A DNA stretch of 31,217 nucleotides from a virus (IMGVR_UViG_2698536549_000026); one strand, 5' to 3'; counted from the first letter of the stretch, positions 9,845 through 29,477 are shown. Notes: generated from the letters alone by a model not told the origin. Translations and numbers: made by a program.

Positions 9845-10308
9845 TCACCTTCCGTTAAATGCGATCGCTATACCTTCAGCGGTCTTGTTGGCGCGGGTAC
9901 GGGCAAAATATTCATCCAGCCAGATGGCACGGGCGATGCTCTCTTCGTCGTCCGGCTCTCCGGGGAGGTAGTGACGCCGCAATGCCAGATACTGCTCAAG
10001 GGGATTGCGGCGGATGCTTTCGACCCGCGCGGTCAGTTTTTTAACTCAATCTCCAGTTTCGGGGAGTAAACCTCGTTAATCTTCTCGACGATCTGCATCT
10101 CACAGCCCGGATAACGCGCAATCAGGTCAGCCAGTGCGTCGCGGCTGGCAGGCGTCACGATGCGGTTAAGATAGGTGCTCATCGGCGCCACCTTGTTGGT
10201 CATCGTGATTTCGTTGATGAGGTTGTTAAATGCCGTTTTGTTCGGTTCAAAGCTCAGGGTTACGCCCGCAACGGACAGGATGATGGTGCCGGTGTTCTTC
10301 GTGGTCAT
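9845..10308 (-). CDS. tail assembly chaperone, predicted -1 frameshift fusion product (GT / E' analogue)
   Basis: After a -1 slip at A_AAA_AAC (10036-10042) the new frame reads 63 sense codons (LTARVESIRRNPLEQYLALRRHYLPGEPDDEESIARAIWLDEYFARTRANKTAEGIAIAFNGR) to TGA at 9845-9847, overlapping the tape measure ATG (9841-9843). The open frame fills the gap exactly. Confidence 0.6.
10033..10308 (-). CDS. tail assembly chaperone, zero-frame product (lambda G / P2 gpE analogue)
   Basis: 91-aa ORF ending ...EIELKN-stop, directly upstream of tape measure. Final codons TTA AAA AAC TGA contain a canonical slippery heptamer. Confidence 0.7.
   Translation of the reverse strand: MTTKNTGTIILSVAGVTLSFEPNKTAFNNLINEITMTNKVAPMSTYLNRIVTPASRDALADLIARYPGCEMQIVEKINEVYSPKLEIELKN
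10036..10042 (-). other. programmed -1 ribosomal frameshift slippery heptamer A_AAA_AAC
   Basis: Minus-strand sequence GAG TTA AAA AAC TGA at the end of the chaperone ORF. X_XXY_YYZ heptamer in the correct register. Confidence 0.6.
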
Positions 10309-10598
10309 TGCAGTTTCTCCGTGTTTCGTATGGTTTCCACCAGGCTGTTATGCCTGGCGGCGCATTCGGTGTAGCGGCTCGTGAGGGTTCGCAGTGCCGC
10401 ATCAAAATCAGCGCCCGTCGGGCCTGCCAGTCTCGGCAGTGTCTTCGGGCATTCCGTCAGCTGGTTTTCCTGCCAGGGTACGCTCAGCGGCTTCAGCACG
10501 GGCGTTGAACAGCCGGACGTAATCATCAGTAGCGCACACATTGCGGAATACCGGGCGGACGGTTTCCGTGTGAATAACGCGTTCAGTGTGAATTTCAT
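10305..10598 (-). CDS. o-spanin (Rz1-like outer-membrane lipoprotein), embedded in the i-spanin gene in another frame
   Basis: Translation contains MCALLMITSGC (signal peptide plus lipobox-like TSGC) followed by a Pro-rich region. Overlaps 10408-10598 of the Rz-like gene out of frame. Start may be the internal ATG at 10541. Confidence 0.55.
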   Translation of the reverse strand: MKFTLNALFTRKPSARYSAMCALLMITSGCSTPVLKPLSVPWQENQLTECPKTLPRLAGPTGADFDAALRTLTSRYTECAARHNSLVETIRNTEKLQ

Positions 10599-10794
10599 TG
10601 CCCTTTAACGCCTCCAGCCGTTTTTCCAGTATGCGGGCGGACTGCTGCCCGGCTTCTGTTACCGCACGTCGCGTGGCTTCCATGGCTTCCTGTTCGGCAA
10701 GCGCCACCCTGGCGTCATGCCAGTCATGGGCCAGCCAGCCCGCCCACATGGCGGCAAAGAGGATCACCAGGCAGCCCGCCACCTGTTTCATCAT
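10408..10794 (-). CDS. i-spanin (Rz-like)
   Basis: 128 aa with N-terminal TM segment (VAGCLVILFAAMWAGWLA) and charged, helical periplasmic part. Immediately downstream of the endolysin with ATGA overlap. Confidence 0.6.
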   Translation of the reverse strand: MMKQVAGCLVILFAAMWAGWLAHDWHDARVALAEQEAMEATRRAVTEAGQQSARILEKRLEALKGNEIHTERVIHTETVRPVFRNVCATDDYVRLFNARAEAAERTLAGKPADGMPEDTAETGRPDGR

Positions 10795-11129
10795 TTCACC
10801 CCGTTGTGCTCAAGGCTGAAATGATTGCCGTCTGCCCGGCTGAAGCGTCCGCCCCATGTGCCGCCGATGGATTCCCAGTATTCCCCCAGCGGCCTGTAGG
10901 CGTCGGTATCGGCCTGGTATTCGCCGTTAATGAACAGGTTGAAGTCCACCGCGAGGCGCAGCGTGTGAAGGCTGTTGCGAATGCCTTTTCCGCTTTTCGC
11001 ATTCAGTGCGGCCTGCTCCGGCGTGCGGTATGCCTCGCCGAAGGTCAGGCGATAGCCGTGCTCCTGTGCCCAGTGGATGAGATCGGCAATCATGACGGCA
11101 AACAGTTGTTGTTTTTCGCTCAGTTTCAT
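10791..11129 (-). CDS. endolysin, peptidase M15-type (L-alanyl-D-glutamate peptidase-like)
   Basis: 112 aa, MKLSEKQQLFAVMIADLIHWAQEHGYRLTFGEAYRTPEQAALNAKSGKGIRNSLHTLRLAVDFNLF...GGRFSRADGNHFSLEH. Matches the small M15 endolysin pattern (H...D...H metal ligands) from memory. Confidence 0.75.
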   Translation of the reverse strand: MKLSEKQQLFAVMIADLIHWAQEHGYRLTFGEAYRTPEQAALNAKSGKGIRNSLHTLRLAVDFNLFINGEYQADTDAYRPLGEYWESIGGTWGGRFSRADGNHFSLEHNGVK

Positions 11130-11881
11130 CAGTCACTCCTCTGTTCCGTCCCCGTAAGACGCGCCTGTGCCACGCTGAAATAGTGGGCGTTCAGTTCAAT
11201 ACCCGTAAAACGGCAGCCCCGGCGAAGGGCGGCCACGCCCGTGGTGCCGGACCCCATAAACGGATCGAGGATCAGCCCTCCGGGTTCACACACGCGCACA
11301 AGCTCATCCATCAACGATTCCGGTTTACCTGTCGGGTGCTGTTTCTCCTGTGGGCGTGTGTGGTGCGTGATGCAGCCGTCGAACGGCCCGGAAGGGGATT
11401 TGCCCAGCGCGCCTTTACTGCCCCAGACCACATATTCGCACTGGTGACGAAAATAACCGGTATGCGGTGTTCTTGAGGCCCGTCCCTTGTTCCATGCCAC
11501 GATCCCCCGCCAGTTAAAGCCGGCGGCCTGGAATGCGTCCGTCAGCGCGGGCAACTGCCGCCAGTCGGTGAAGACCAGGGCGTAACCACCGGGTCGTACC
11601 GTGCGCCATGCCTGTGTCATCCACAGATGCGTCCAGTATTCCCATGAACGGGCGTCCATGTTCTCGCCTTCGAAGCCTTCAAAGCGGTGAAGATCTTCAT
11701 CGTTGATGTATTTGGCGTGGCTGCCCTGGCATGTCCGCCCCGCCTTGTGTGTGGCACCTGAACTGTATGGCGGGTCTGTGATGAGCGCGTCCACACTGTT
11801 TTCCGGCAGCATCCGCAGAACGTCATGCGCCTGCGCGTGATACAGGCTCAGGGAAGGCGAAATGTAAGGCTTATGGGTCAT
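11129..11881 (-). CDS. DNA methyltransferase, beta-class amino-MTase (N6-adenine or N4-cytosine)
   Basis: 250 aa. Catalytic DPPY motif near N-terminus (ALITDPPYSS), AdoMet-binding FxGxG motif near C-terminus (LDPFMGSGTTGVAA). Motif IV before motif I indicates the beta permutation. No adjacent restriction endonuclease gene. Confidence 0.85.
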   Translation of the reverse strand: MTHKPYISPSLSLYHAQAHDVLRMLPENSVDALITDPPYSSGATHKAGRTCQGSHAKYINDEDLHRFEGFEGENMDARSWEYWTHLWMTQAWRTVRPGGYALVFTDWRQLPALTDAFQAAGFNWRGIVAWNKGRASRTPHTGYFRHQCEYVVWGSKGALGKSPSGPFDGCITHHTRPQEKQHPTGKPESLMDELVRVCEPGGLILDPFMGSGTTGVAALRRGCRFTGIELNAHYFSVAQARLTGTEQRSD

Positions 11882-12176
11882 TTCTGCGTTCCTTCTGCTT
11901 CAGGTAGCGGTCTGCCAGACGGCAAAAGCATTCTTCAATAAAGGCGCTGCCCATAATGCCCAGCGCGCACGCCAGACCGACCACTACCAGCTCCGGCATG
12001 TCCGGAAATTTAAACAGCGGAATGGCGGCAACCGGTGCCACGGCAGAGCCCATAATCATTCGCCCGATAAGCAGACGGGCTGTGATGCGATCGCGGCTCA
12101 CCATGAGACGCCCCAGCCCGATGGCAGCACCGATGATAATCAGTTTTGCCAGGAGTGAAGTCTGACCGTCCGGCAT
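11871..12176 (-). CDS. putative holin (three predicted TM segments)
   Basis: 101 aa with hydrophobic stretches LLAKLIIIGAAIGLGRLMV, IMGSAVAPVAAIPLF, LVVVGLACALGIMGSAFI and a charged C-terminus. First gene of the lysis cluster. Confidence 0.55.
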   Translation of the reverse strand: MPDGQTSLLAKLIIIGAAIGLGRLMVSRDRITARLLIGRMIMGSAVAPVAAIPLFKFPDMPELVVVGLACALGIMGSAFIEECFCRLADRYLKQKERRNDP

Positions 12177-25923: not shown

Positions 25924-25999
25924 GGTGTTTGGCCTCTTGTAGTAAGTTCTGAAAACTCACCAACCCGAGGTTCCAAGCTCAGGGTGGCGAGACGTACAG

Positions 26000-26152
26000 G
26001 GTTGGAACTACCGGCTACAAGAGATCCCGGCCCGACCGAAGTCGGCCCCGTACGCCCCGCCATAATTCTGACGCGAAAAAGACGTGGCGATACAGTACGC
26101 ACAAAAAAACCGCTGGCGCGGTTGTGCGCTCTTGTAGTCGGCGGGGTTCCAA
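26000..26152. repeat. inverted repeats of a two-part motif (CTCTTGTAG-N6/7-GGTTCCAA) flanking about 105 bp, with a third partial direct copy at 25934-25976
   Basis: 26002-26023 TTGGAACTACCGGCTACAAGAG is the reverse complement of a near-copy of 26129-26152 CTCTTGTAGTCGGCGGGGTTCCAA. Both half-motifs recur at 25934-25942 and 25969-25976. Lies in a 320-bp non-coding gap. Confidence 0.6.
26102..26123 (-). terminator. intrinsic terminator-like hairpin on the minus strand inside the early operon
   Basis: Minus-strand sequence AACCGC-GCCA-GCGGTT followed by TTTTTTT (revcomp of 26102-26123). Downstream of the 184-aa gene, upstream of the 75-aa/138-aa/A genes. Confidence 0.5.
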
Positions 26153-26243
26153 TCCCGGCACCCGTTTTATGAGGTGCGGGAAAACTGTAACCCGACCAGG
26201 CGAACGCTGGCAAGCGGTTTTTTTGTGTGTGCATGATGATCAC

Positions 26244-27037: not shown

Positions 27038-27291
27038 GGCCGCAGCTCTCCGTGGGCTTGTGTTTCTGATTTCCATGCCCCTCTGATGGTCATTACTTCG
27101 CGAACGGTACTGGCAATCGCGGTGATTTGTGTTCCGTCAGCCAGATGGATGTAGAGATAATCAGCGTCTGACGGGCACGGCGTGGTCGTTGTGATCAAAT
27201 GACTTTCCACCATGAACTCGTGGCCCACGGCATCGGTGAAACGCGTCAGCATGGTGGCGGTAAATATGCTGTTCATCGACCTGCCCCTCAC
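27034..27291 (-). CDS. hypothetical small early protein
   Basis: 85 aa. ATGA overlap with the upstream gene stop at 27288-27291. Confidence 0.4.
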   Translation of the reverse strand: MRGRSMNSIFTATMLTRFTDAVGHEFMVESHLITTTTPCPSDADYLYIHLADGTQITAIASTVREVMTIRGAWKSETQAHGELRP

Positions 27292-27566
27292 GCTGAAAAC
27301 TGGCCGGACTGTGCCCGGAGTTCTGCCAGTTCGCGCTCGAGGCGCAGGTTTTTCATATAGAGTTCACTGATGGTCTGTTTTGCTGTCACCATTGCCATGC
27401 TTTGCATTTGCAGGGCCATGTAAGTAGCAAAATGCTTGTCTTTATCTATTTCTGATATTCTTTCATCCAGTACATTGGTTATTTCAGTCAGCGTTTTTTG
27501 CGTCAATTCAATATGCGCCGGGTCGGTAAATAGTTTGTTTATTTCTGTAGGTGTATTGGTGCTCAT
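27288..27566 (-). CDS. hypothetical small early protein, predicted coiled coil
   Basis: 92 aa with heptad-like C-terminus (ELYMKNLRLERELAELRAQ). AT-rich region. Confidence 0.4.
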   Translation of the reverse strand: MSTNTPTEINKLFTDPAHIELTQKTLTEITNVLDERISEIDKDKHFATYMALQMQSMAMVTAKQTISELYMKNLRLERELAELRAQSGQFSA

Positions 27567-27645
27567 AGCTGTTTCTCCGTTTCTGGATTGAGTGAAGCCC
27601 TCCGCAGATGCGGATGGTTTTAATGTTTTCTGTCCGGTTGGTTAT

Positions 27646-27771
27646 TTATTTACGGCGTTCTTCGCCAGTAAATAAAGATTCGATATTTTTCAGCGCTTCG
27701 ATAATTCGCATAATGCCAATCGCCATAAGCACGGAAATAATCAGAATCACCCATGAAAGAAATACGCTCAT
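27646..27771 (-). CDS. small single-pass membrane peptide (41 aa), not in the ORF track
   Basis: Translated by hand: MSVFLSWVILIISVLMAIGIMRIIEALKNIESLFTGEERRK. ATG at 27769-27771 overlaps the stop of the 80-aa gene (ATGA). Hydrophobic N-terminal helix, charged tail, stop TAA at 27646-27648. Confidence 0.4.
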   Translation of the reverse strand: MSVFLSWVILIISVLMAIGIMRIIEALKNIESLFTGEERRK

Positions 27772-28010
27772 GCTGCATTCCCAAGTGCGTATGGCTCAAT
27801 ATGTACTCCGCATTCTGCATCACGAACAAGCTCAGACAGCTCATTGAGAGCATCCAGATCGTCAGCGTAAAAAGCTGCGTCATACAGGCTGCGAATTGCT
27901 CTGGTCAGTGAGTCTCTTGCTGCATGTTCTGCGGCAACTCCTGACATACTCAGGCGAAAGTTAAAGCGCTCAAGGGCTTTATTGATGAGAACCTTATATT
28001 CTTTGTCCAT
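27768..28010 (-). CDS. hypothetical small early protein
   Basis: 80-aa ORF, co-oriented in the early operon. Confidence 0.4.
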   Translation of the reverse strand: MDKEYKVLINKALERFNFRLSMSGVAAEHAARDSLTRAIRSLYDAAFYADDLDALNELSELVRDAECGVHIEPYALGNAA

Positions 28011-28030: not shown

Positions 28031-28285
28031 TTAAACAAAATCGCTTAATGATTTACCTGATTCAATCTTCTCTATCGTGTCTTCAATAGCCATGTATGCG
28101 GCGTAATCGCCTGCGAGGTCGGCGCATTTCTGTAGCCCCTGTAATGCGCTGATGATATCTTCTTTTGCTTCCCATAAAGGTTTTGCTGTATTTAGTGCAT
28201 TACGGGCATTATTAGCTATGAGCCGGTGTATGATAATTGTGTAGGCTGATGCTATCTCTGCCATGTCTTTTGTCGTTGTTGCCAT
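28031..28285 (-). CDS. hypothetical small early protein
   Basis: 84-aa ORF, co-oriented in the early operon. Confidence 0.4.
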   Translation of the reverse strand: MATTTKDMAEIASAYTIIIHRLIANNARNALNTAKPLWEAKEDIISALQGLQKCADLAGDYAAYMAIEDTIEKIESGKSLSDFV

Positions 28286-28288
28286 GTA

Positions 28289-28675
28289 TTAATTCCCCCA
28301 TGGATGCTGAAAACTGCGACCGCTGATTAACCGGTCTGCCGTTCTTAATGCTTCGTGCAGGGTGAAATCCTGCCCGAACTGCTCATCTCCGCGAGTCAGG
28401 GAGTAACAGGTATTTCCGGTAATCGGGTTGCGTGCGCCTCTGTGTATGACAATTCCGGCATCATTAATCAGCCAGGTGTGTTTACCGGTTTGTTTAACCG
28501 GATGCCCGTCAGGTGTGGCGTGCGTTTCCTGCAGGCTATAGTGCGTGTTGCTGCGTGATGCACTGGTTGAGAAACGGGCTGCGTGGCGTTCTGTGCCAGT
28601 GCGGAAGTTGCGTCGCTGTGTCATATCGGAAAACCCGCTTAAGTTAAAAGAATTGAAATAACGGTGTATTGGCAT
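28289..28675 (-). CDS. hypothetical early protein
   Basis: 128-aa ORF. Start abuts the stop of the preceding gene. Confidence 0.45.
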   Translation of the reverse strand: MPIHRYFNSFNLSGFSDMTQRRNFRTGTERHAARFSTSASRSNTHYSLQETHATPDGHPVKQTGKHTWLINDAGIVIHRGARNPITGNTCYSLTRGDEQFGQDFTLHEALRTADRLISGRSFQHPWGN

Positions 28676-28936: not shown

Positions 28937-29362
28937 TCACGCAGCTTTTTTACTGATGCGTTTATTCCGTGAACCAGCTGCTGGCTTAAATAAAAAAAGT
29001 CGGTTTTCCCATTCGTGCCATTCTTGCGGTGCGTTTTCAGTGAGTCGATCGCAGGCTTCATCCCACGCTTTCCGGTTGATGTAGAGTTCGGCGTTTCCGC
29101 CAGGCTTGAGAGGGTCCGCCATGTACACAGCGGGTAATTTCCCTGCTTTTGCCATGCTCACGATGGCGTCAACGGTCTTGCCGATATACATCGCAAACCC
29201 TTCTTTTGACAGGAGATGAGAAGGGTTTTGTGAAAGCCTGATTTCCTGGCGTTCAGGGGCTTTGCGCCCGGTCTTTTGGTGTGCGGTTTCTGGCGCATCT
29301 GTCAACTGATCGCACTGTGTTTCGGCAGGCGATTCAGGCGCGTTTTGAGTGACTTCTTGCAT
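28937..29362 (-). CDS. cox: Cox-like excisionase / early transcriptional regulator
   Basis: ORF track gives 28937..29401. ATG at 29362 has GGAGG 8 nt upstream, giving about 141 aa. Segment FAMYIGKTVDAIVSMAKAGKLPAVYMADPLKPGGNAELYINRKAWDEA resembles P2 Cox (FAKLIGKSTGAVRRMIDKGKLPVIDMTDP...). First gene of the early operon, divergent from the repressor. Confidence 0.6.
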   Translation of the reverse strand: MQEVTQNAPESPAETQCDQLTDAPETAHQKTGRKAPERQEIRLSQNPSHLLSKEGFAMYIGKTVDAIVSMAKAGKLPAVYMADPLKPGGNAELYINRKAWDEACDRLTENAPQEWHEWENRLFLFKPAAGSRNKRISKKAA

Positions 29363-29477
29363 CTGGTATCCTCCGTTATTGGTGCTATTTCTATCTGGCA
29401 CTAGTTGGAACCACTTAGAACATTTCTTTTTATGTTCATATGTGGTATTAATCTACACATATGTAGGAGTTTGTCAA
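29363..29477. promoter_or_regulatory. immunity switch region between divergent cox-like and repressor genes (promoters/operators)
   Basis: 115-bp gap. Contains repeated CACTAG/CACTTAG elements (29399-29418) and palindrome CATATGTG-N11-CACATATG (29437-29463) centred on TATTAAT. Confidence 0.55.

Follow-up and report, generated by a model that had tools for sequence, protein, structure and literature searches.

The window analyzed in this study is the whole 31,217-nt stretch of viral DNA (IMGVR_UViG_2698536549_000026), which represents a P2-like E. coli prophage of the P88-like group (Xuanwuvirus, Peduoviridae). Over the 1.2 kb around the gene characterized here, identity is 99.9% to E. coli N51 and 98-99.7% to a few other genomes. 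On the minus strand, the order is Cox, small ORFs, DUF4761, an 84-aa ORF, DUF4754 and a 41-aa ORF, followed by a 79-nt spacer. Beyond the spacer lie small ORFs, including a Myb-like DNA-binding protein, a 'derepression protein' and the gpA replication endonuclease. The features relevant to the analysis are the following.

10305..12176, minus strand: late lysis cassette, ~16 kb from the peptide gene
27601..27614, minus strand: hairpin or palindrome with a 5-bp stem, TCCGC-N4-GCGGA, in the spacer that follows the peptide gene
27646..27771, minus strand: very probable small membrane protein gene, 41 codons plus stop, identical to RefSeq WP_000110304.1
27649..27708, minus strand: codons 22-41 of that gene, a juxtamembrane amphipathic segment (R22-F34) and variable charged tail, where all charges lie
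27709..27765, minus strand: codons 3-21, predicted transmembrane (TM) helix, VFLSWVILIISVLMAIGIM, Kyte-Doolittle 2.74, no charges
27768..27771, minus strand: ATGA start/stop overlap of the peptide gene with the DUF4754 gene, a putative translational coupling site
27778..27782, minus strand: weak Shine-Dalgarno (SD)-like GGGAA, 7-11 nt upstream of the peptide ATG and within the last codons of DUF4754
27650..27883, minus strand: alternative-frame ORF of 77 aa, spurious (pN/pS 1.19, stops in relatives)
27768..28010, minus strand: DUF4754 gene, 80 aa, the constant upstream partner (PF15946, E=3e-43)
28031..28285, minus strand: 84-aa ORF, a neighbor
28289..28675, minus strand: DUF4761 gene
28937..29401, minus strand: Cox family gene (PF10743)
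29450..29477, minus strand: promoter-like TTGACA-16-TAGATT, probable Pe, with 10 of 12 consensus matches and called by consensus only

Read on the minus strand, 27646..27771 begins ATG AGC GTA TTT and ends CGT AAA TAA, and its translation is MSVFLSWVILIISVLMAIGIMRIIEALKNIESLFTGEERRK. The ORF, its translation and its coordinates were reproduced exactly as they had been given in a first-pass annotation of the window. The ATG occupies 27771..27769, and its last two bases (TG) are common to the TGA stop codon of DUF4754. Four-base overlaps are common along the same operon. By itself, a 41-codon ORF is unremarkable, as 48 ORFs of 20 aa or more overlap the 2.5-kb region. The peptide is the most hydrophobic of the 101 ATG-initiated ORFs of 30-60 aa found in the six frames of the whole window, only 1% of which reach a Kyte-Doolittle 19-residue mean of at least 2.5. 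This ranking, together with conservation of the frame in relatives, places the ORF above chance.

Evidence for coding was drawn from 94 loci carrying the peptide ORF, taken from annotated E. coli genomes, phage records, IMG/VR contigs and two divergent contigs. The frame is open in all 94 over 30-45 codons (37 codons in 80 loci, 41 in nine, 45 in three and 30 in two). For substitution analysis, 35 unique sequences were compared over the first 90 nt of the ORF. Because the values are pairwise sums over related sequences of a shallow family, the ratios are descriptive and carry no formal tests; read in this way, the peptide frame gave pS 0.28, pN 0.079 and pN/pS 0.28, with stops in none of the 35 sequences, and the DUF4754 gene, used as a positive control, gave a pN/pS of 0.27. 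Codons 2-21, which make up the TM part, were the most constrained (pN/pS 0.24). Summed entropy was 12.8 at codon position 3 vs. 6.7 at position 1 and 3.0 at position 2. The third sense frame, by comparison, had a pN/pS of 1.11 and stops in every sequence.

The 77-aa ORF at 27650..27883 competes for the same DNA. As the first-pass annotation had pointed out, it is present in another frame and overlaps the neighboring gene; the overlap with the Pfam-supported DUF4754 gene amounts to 116 nt. We rejected this frame as a gene on the grounds of that overlap, its pN/pS of 1.19, the stops that interrupt it in 13 of the 35 unique sequences and an open length that varies from 31 to 84 codons among relatives. 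Substitution patterns favoring the 77-aa frame had been named as the observation that would count against the peptide. Relatives show the opposite (0.28 vs. 1.19); the peptide frame is the coding one, as had been proposed. Taken together, these data strongly support 27646..27771 as a conserved protein-coding gene, as judged from comparative sequence evidence, and we consider it highly probable that the gene is real and translated into a membrane protein. The abundance of short ORFs noted above and the weak SD-like element would suit an unexpressed chance ORF, but the conservation, codon-position and hydrophobicity evidence makes that explanation extremely improbable.

The context of the start codon is consistent with translation by termination-reinitiation coupled to DUF4754, as the earlier reading of the sequence had suggested. 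The ATGA overlap is kept in all 94 related loci. The GGGAA element has a predicted anti-SD duplex energy of -4.2 kcal/mol, a value reached at 22% of nearby background positions. Nevertheless, a purine-rich element is kept in 12 of 12 upstream variants (-4.2 to -8.5 kcal/mol), even in those with a different DUF4754 C-terminus. Wherever codon 77 of DUF4754 encodes glycine, as it does in 90 loci (50 unique sequences), only GGG and GGA are used, and GGC and GGT do not occur.

The product is strongly supported as one long helix of which residues ~3-21 cross the inner membrane. The Kyte-Doolittle 19-residue mean over residues 3-21 is 2.74; residues 1-21 contain no charge, and all nine charged residues fall within 22-41. 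The description of the peptide as one hydrophobic helix with a charged tail is thus borne out. An amphipathic stretch covers residues 19-34 (hydrophobic moment 0.5-0.7). AlphaFold2, run with a 23-sequence alignment, predicted a single helix over residues 3-39 (mean pLDDT 82), with block-mean pLDDT values of 85-94 over residues 1-30. A single-helix model is as expected for such a peptide and tells nothing about its function. The predicted topology is N-out/C-in with essentially no periplasmic part beyond the two N-terminal residues, since no positive charge precedes the helix and R22 and K28 follow it (the positive-inside rule). Features of exported proteins were judged by reading the sequence. 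A Sec signal peptide was rejected, as there is no charge ahead of the 19-21-residue hydrophobic stretch and the positive charges lie behind it. A lipoprotein was likewise rejected: position 16 is Met in the window, and in variants with Cys16 the residues at -1 to -3 are unlike a lipobox.

M1, S6 and W7 do not vary among 103 unique family members, F4, L10, I11, G19 and I23 are nearly invariant, and I12, S13, V14, A17, I18, I20, I24 and K28 are highly conserved; R22 is also conserved. Positions 5, 8, 9, 15, 16, 25-27, 29, 32, 33, 35 and 36 vary. Part of this per-residue conservation reflects recent common ancestry, because the family is shallow (pS ~0.28, 18 clusters). Hydrophobic character is kept in all 103 variants. 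Conservation peaks with a helix-like periodicity of 105 degrees per residue, which is borderline by permutation (p ~0.05), and the conserved positions cover most of the helix circumference, leaving a single variable stripe. Beyond approximately residue 31 the tail varies, with total lengths of 30, 37, 41 and 45 aa. The last 6-10 residues differ between subtypes in both length and sequence, and the functional core would therefore consist of the TM helix and the juxtamembrane turn or two that follow.

The first-pass annotation had called the peptide unannotated, which holds only for its own ORF track; RefSeq, GenBank phage records and UniProt all carry the gene. RefSeq WP_000110304.1 has the same 41 residues (100% identity; a CDS in NZ_CM165887.1, called by PGAP as 'hypothetical protein'), and the UniProt entry of the exact peptide is A0AAP6AWC8. 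In a protein collection, the exact sequence occurs on at least 1000 contigs. The 37-aa form found in RefSeq genomes is WP_000021656.1, and a 37-aa homologue that is 63% identical is annotated in phage P88 as gp07, 'membrane protein' (YP_009113050.1). Homologues in two vB_EcoM phages are labeled 'putative membrane protein', and phage homologues in general are 56-66% identical to the peptide. The gene is missing from some phage records, such as Shae_phiSM (no CDS there) and 520873 (none over the ORF). Megablast against the phage collection gave no match; the homologues there surfaced by tblastn. A sensitive DNA search detected DNA for DUF4754 plus the peptide in 1425 of the 5426 complete E. coli genomes, and among the matches listed the annotation beneath reads 'DUF4754 family protein' followed by 'hypothetical protein'. 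The gene is thus one that standard annotation already calls, and it belongs to a common prophage family.

That family has a narrow range. When 5.8 billion clustered proteins were searched with a profile, every match (E-values of 1e-13 to 1e-21) was a protein named hypothetical from Escherichia, namely E. coli, E. albertii, E. fergusonii or an entry labeled 'multispecies'. A HMMER scan of 1.84 billion cluster representatives gave 18 matches at E<=1e-3, all of them members or fragments of the family itself, and no family beyond the P88-like group was found among these representatives. The peptide family belongs to P88-like (Xuanwuvirus) prophages of Escherichia and Citrobacter. Its most divergent full-length member, P0130, has the same arrangement of DUF4761, DUF4754 and peptide.

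Known families offered no assignment. Pfam contained no match for the window peptide at E<=0.1; for 23 family members searched at E<=10, only scattered, non-significant TM-type matches appeared, none to a toxin or holin family. PADLOC gave no defense-family match, NCBIfam no significant match, and a profile search of PDB sequences with the peptide came back empty. PHROGs gave no clear match: PHROG 5315, of unknown function, matched the window peptide alone at E=0.045 and none of the 23 family members at E<=0.01. For DUF4754, whose AlphaFold2 model is a three-helix bundle (pLDDT 90), comparison with the PDB and BFVD gave no match at E<=1e-3, only generic helical bundles, and a PDB sequence search was empty. 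No paper was found that names DUF4754, DUF4761, the peptide accessions or the peptide sequence. The P88 genome paper does not discuss the peptide gene, and broader literature searches about small membrane proteins of phages turned up nothing relevant and no experiment on the translation, localization or phenotype of the peptide.

The placement of the gene in the early operon, as originally described, agrees with the order of Cox, DUF4761 and DUF4754, with gpA downstream and with a Pe-like site upstream. That promoter-like site lies just upstream of cox, is the best in the region, and has the same layout as in P2 and 186. Since it sits where the early promoter of these phages lies, assignment of the peptide gene to the early lytic operon is strongly supported. 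The conserved early module consists of DUF4761, a variable gene, DUF4754 and the peptide gene, which is last. The same gene order occurs in P88, Shae_phiSM, PhiR44_2, Chuche and the divergent contigs. DUF4754 and the peptide gene are syntenic in every locus examined, and the pair is constant while the downstream genes vary. The 84-aa ORF between DUF4761 and DUF4754 was considered as a DUF4754 paralogue and rejected (hhalign probability 1%). At the place equivalent to the peptide gene, P2 and 186 have no ORF.

The hairpin at 27601..27614 is present in nearly all relatives and marks the end of the conserved module. Pairing holds in 99% of the alignment cells, with compensatory changes from C:G to U:A at two of the five pairs; a terminator-like score is obtained on the plus strand only. 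Being the last ORF before the spacer with this hairpin, and variable in C-terminal length (30 to 45 aa), the gene might be needed for its translation alone, keeping ribosomes on the mRNA against Rho-dependent polarity or positioning them near the hairpin. This is very improbable. Amino acids are under purifying selection as strong as in DUF4754 (0.28 vs. 0.27), most of all in the TM part (0.24), and hydrophobicity is retained in every one of the unique variants. Moreover, at least 31 nt separate the peptide stop codon from the hairpin, a distance at which a terminating ribosome probably could not melt it.

Since the peptide is small and highly hydrophobic, with a single TM helix and a short charged C-terminal tail, a membrane-damaging toxin of the type I or holin-like kind deserves consideration. 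Such a peptide would oligomerize and depolarize or permeabilize the inner membrane, leading to early host shutdown or abortive infection. The first-pass annotation had suggested a host-inhibition or toxin-like role, for which size and hydrophobicity are the only positive evidence. Small toxins of the Fst/Ldr type are of similar size and likewise have a single TM helix and a short charged C-terminal tail, and type I toxins more generally (Hok/Gef, Fst/Ldr, TisB and Ibs) are small and hydrophobic with a charged end. However, the peptide has no Pfam match to Hok, Ldr, Fst, TisB, Ibs or holins and no PADLOC match, and Pfam, NCBIfam and PADLOC together gave no membership in the type I families Hok, Ldr, Fst, TisB, Ibs and ShoB. 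Unlike type I toxin genes, which are monocistronic with their own promoter and an antisense RNA, the peptide gene is coupled within a polycistronic phage operon with no evident promoter or antisense RNA of its own. Promoter- and terminator-like sites around it are no commoner than in shuffled sequence, and an Rfam scan, which covers known RNA families and could miss a novel antisense RNA, showed no antitoxin RNA at the gene, only C4 and isrK 1.5 kb away. The charge distribution, which predicts N-out/C-in, is a further difference from type I toxins. The late lysis cassette, moreover, already supplies the phage with a holin (holin PF04550, E=1e-19; a Peptidase_M15_4 endolysin; and a weak, sub-threshold LysC, an Rz1-like spanin), and early depolarization would presumably hurt the phage's own replication. 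On balance, we regard a membrane-damaging toxin as unlikely. A holin, antiholin or pinholin was rejected separately on the lack of a holin Pfam match and the ~16 kb that separate the gene from the late lysis cassette.

Another role open to a small inner-membrane protein with predicted early expression is superinfection exclusion, in which the peptide would block injection and stop the DNA of competing phages from entering during replication. Small early inner-membrane exclusion proteins are known in phages, T4 Imm being an example. Against this, exclusion genes of temperate phages are usually expressed from the prophage, whereas the peptide gene lies in an early lytic operon that is repressed in the prophage. 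There is also no separate promoter signal above chance and no match to a defense family, and the exclusion genes of P2-type phages (old, tin and fun) are located elsewhere. An exclusion function is therefore quite improbable.

The strict association with DUF4754 raises the possibility that the peptide is purely a membrane tether, serving only to anchor the DUF4754 bundle to the cytoplasmic face in a two-subunit complex of fixed ratio. In favor of this are the adjacency of the two genes, with their 4-nt overlap, in every locus examined, and the movement of the pair as a module while the genes downstream vary. Helix 3 of DUF4754 is acidic (DDLDALNELSEL) and the juxtamembrane segment of the peptide is basic in most variants (RIIHSVKKIERFF), a further point in favor; the window's own variant, however, has a nearly neutral segment. 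In addition, a simple anchor would not need invariant polar and small TM residues (S6, W7, S13, A17 and G19), and tight linkage within a shallow family confounds the co-occurrence. We consider a mere tether unlikely.

The reading that we tentatively prefer, with less than even confidence, is that the peptide is a small membrane adaptor or modulator that acts early in the lytic cycle through specific helix-helix contacts. A specific interaction is favored over generic hydrophobicity because many TM positions are near-invariant, small and polar residues among them, and because conservation has the 105-degree periodicity while the tail is free to vary. A lysis gene is not what we envisage, because the holin, endolysin and LysC cassette is ~16 kb away. 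According to this model, the early promoter upstream of cox would transcribe the peptide gene once the repressor is lifted, and ribosomes ending DUF4754 would reinitiate at the ATGA, so that production of the peptide keeps pace with that of DUF4754 and probably depends on DUF4754 translation. The N-terminus would face the periplasm, with the R22/K28 juxtamembrane amphipathic segment on the cytoplasmic face. The conserved helix surface (S6, W7, L10, I11, S13, V14, A17, I18, G19, I20, I23, I24 and K28) would pack against a partner helix, conceivably that of a host inner-membrane or envelope protein, further copies of the peptide, or both, and DUF4754, a soluble three-helix bundle translated along with the peptide, may be recruited by the cytoplasmic segment. 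The outcome would be host takeover through alteration of a host membrane process early in the lytic cycle, and the peptide would not be a bulk membrane poison. As a point against the adaptor model, the pairing of DUF4754 with the peptide could be plain linkage.

A bolder version, possible although we doubt it, is that DUF4754 and the peptide form a two-part host-takeover device, present in roughly one in four sequenced E. coli, in which the helix of 37-41 aa uses its conserved face to dock on a specific, essential inner-membrane machine and recruits DUF4754 to it. The machine could be, for example, the divisome, FtsH or a transport component, engaged at the onset of lytic growth, and the hairpin would then be the 3′ boundary of the module. 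If true, the pair would establish a new family of transmembrane modulators that are encoded by phages and have a defined target in the host.

Annotation routinely overlooks the small membrane proteins of phages or leaves them as 'hypothetical', yet some are potent, specific modulators of host machinery. This gene is unusual among them for its prevalence in E. coli (1425 of 5426 complete genomes) and for its strict pairing with DUF4754. The protein is already in databases as a hypothetical or membrane protein, and its family is known to be common in E. coli prophages. The peptide is tightly conserved, occurs widely and falls in no curated family, so that a straightforward study of expression and interactions could give a function to a very common prophage gene pair. 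There is also a lesson for method: the size cutoff of the ORF track hid a gene that PGAP calls, and the 77-aa ORF that was tracked in its place is spurious.

Comparison with known systems sets the peptide beside several groups of small proteins. Its closest counterparts are P88 gp07, WP_000021656.1, WP_000110304.1 and A0AAP6AWC8, which are homologous or identical to it; of these, P88 gp07 and WP_000110304.1 directly follow DUF4754 with the same ATGA. Proteins of the P88 type have 37 aa and end in ...FFTGE, and those of the window type have 41 aa and end in EERRK. TatA and TatE also have an N-out TM helix followed by an amphipathic helix, and there is a local likeness between SWxxLIIxV of the peptide family and IWQLLIIAV. 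The NCBIfam TatA match is weak (E=0.11, 12.4 bits vs. a cutoff of 104), and a TatA-like assignment was rejected as chance TM similarity, with an hhalign probability of 4% over 12 TM columns and no Pfam TatA match.

Small host inhibitors of other phages resemble the peptide in genetic position. Lambda Kil is a 47-aa host inhibitor of the early operon (PMC3961180) and a soluble helix-turn-helix peptide (PMC11762379). Like 186 Fil (75 aa) and Dhr (66 aa), it is small and non-essential, and its gene lies in the early lytic operon, flanked by the immunity region and the replication genes. Neither Pfam nor PHROG matches link the peptide to the phage cell-division inhibitors lambda Kil, 186 Fil and DicB. 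Homology to 186 Fil or Dhr, or to early ORFs of P2, was rejected because the sequences are unrelated; Fil and Dhr show no sequence similarity to the peptide and have no N-terminal hydrophobic helix. The likeness is one of placement: in 186, fil and dhr close the first early block before terminator tR1, and here the peptide gene closes its block before the conserved hairpin.

In architecture, the peptide is like small proteins of the AcrZ, Blr, SidA and MgtS type, after which the adaptor reading is modeled and to which it has no detectable homology among the 1.84 billion representatives or in Pfam and NCBIfam. These proteins, too, are 30-50 aa in length, with one TM helix, very little outside the cytoplasmic side of the membrane and a short cytoplasmic tail, and they act by binding a larger membrane protein.

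The DUF4754-peptide module is bordered by two small ORFs on the operon-sense strand, each of which differs in occurrence among related prophages:

27288..27566 (-), 92-aa ORF directly downstream of the spacer that follows the peptide gene
28031..28285 (-), 84-aa ORF between the DUF4761 and DUF4754 genes

The downstream ORF matched PDC-M64B (E=4e-4) and PDC-M64C (E=3e-3), which are PADLOC candidate defence-system proteins, only weakly, and its slot is variable, being occupied by at least three unrelated genes among the relatives. Only some of the relatives carry the 84-aa ORF; it is missing, for example, from the related locus L009. Its faint PHROG match to the DUF4754 family (E=0.077) raised the idea of a DUF4754 paralogue, which was unsupported by profile comparison (probability 1%).

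Length variants of the peptide, with 45 or 30 aa, were found at the related loci L005 (PhiR44_2) and L006 (Chuche), and in the peptide-family proteins P0044, P0047, P0071, and P0076. These forms appear to result from indels of one base, or from a stop, within the T-run near codon 33 (…CGCTTTTTCAC…). Since residues 1-30 are intact in the variants and the changes are confined to the tail, the sequences suggest that the tail is dispensable. The gene pair also occurs at L010 (NZ_JBQPOM010000071.1, 2501-2740), on a 226-kb contig labelled Vagococcus sp. WN89Y, a Gram-positive bacterium, where a DUF4754 gene 85% identical to that of the window is followed by the same peptide ORF; the label most likely reflects contamination or a mislabelled Enterobacteriaceae assembly.

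Features were also noted in two further regions of the prophage:

10791..11129, M15 endolysin gene of the lysis cassette
11129..11881 (-), DNA methyltransferase gene (N6_N4_Mtase, E=7e-28)
11871..12176, holin gene of the lysis cassette
25980..26067 (-), C4 antisense RNA (Rfam, 83 bits)
26103..26177 (-), isrK Hfq-binding RNA (Rfam, 69 bits)

The methyltransferase gene lies inside the lysis cassette, flanked by the holin and endolysin genes, and looks like a moron inserted into the late operon. As the tandem C4 and isrK RNAs occupy a region annotated as a 'derepression protein' gene in related prophages, they suggest that this P2-like prophage carries an antirepressor control module of the P1/P7 c4-ant or isrK-anrP type.

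Another feature of the module is a conserved inverted repeat in the spacer downstream of the peptide gene (27567..27645):

27601..27614, 5-bp inverted repeat, TCCGC-N4-GCGGA

The repeat is preceded by an A-rich run and followed directly by an invariant GG, so that its 3' arm reads GGAGG. Almost all relatives share the repeat but differ in the genes beyond it, so it marks the module boundary. In the alignment of relatives, 99% of cells were paired, with compensatory C:G to U:A changes in two of the five pairs. One variant retains a G-U pair, a pairing functional only on the operon-sense strand; the appearance of an intrinsic terminator is restricted to the + (antisense) strand, on which the repeat leads into a T-run. 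The element may act as either an RNA hairpin or a DNA palindrome. In P2 and 186, terminators are found at the analogous place.
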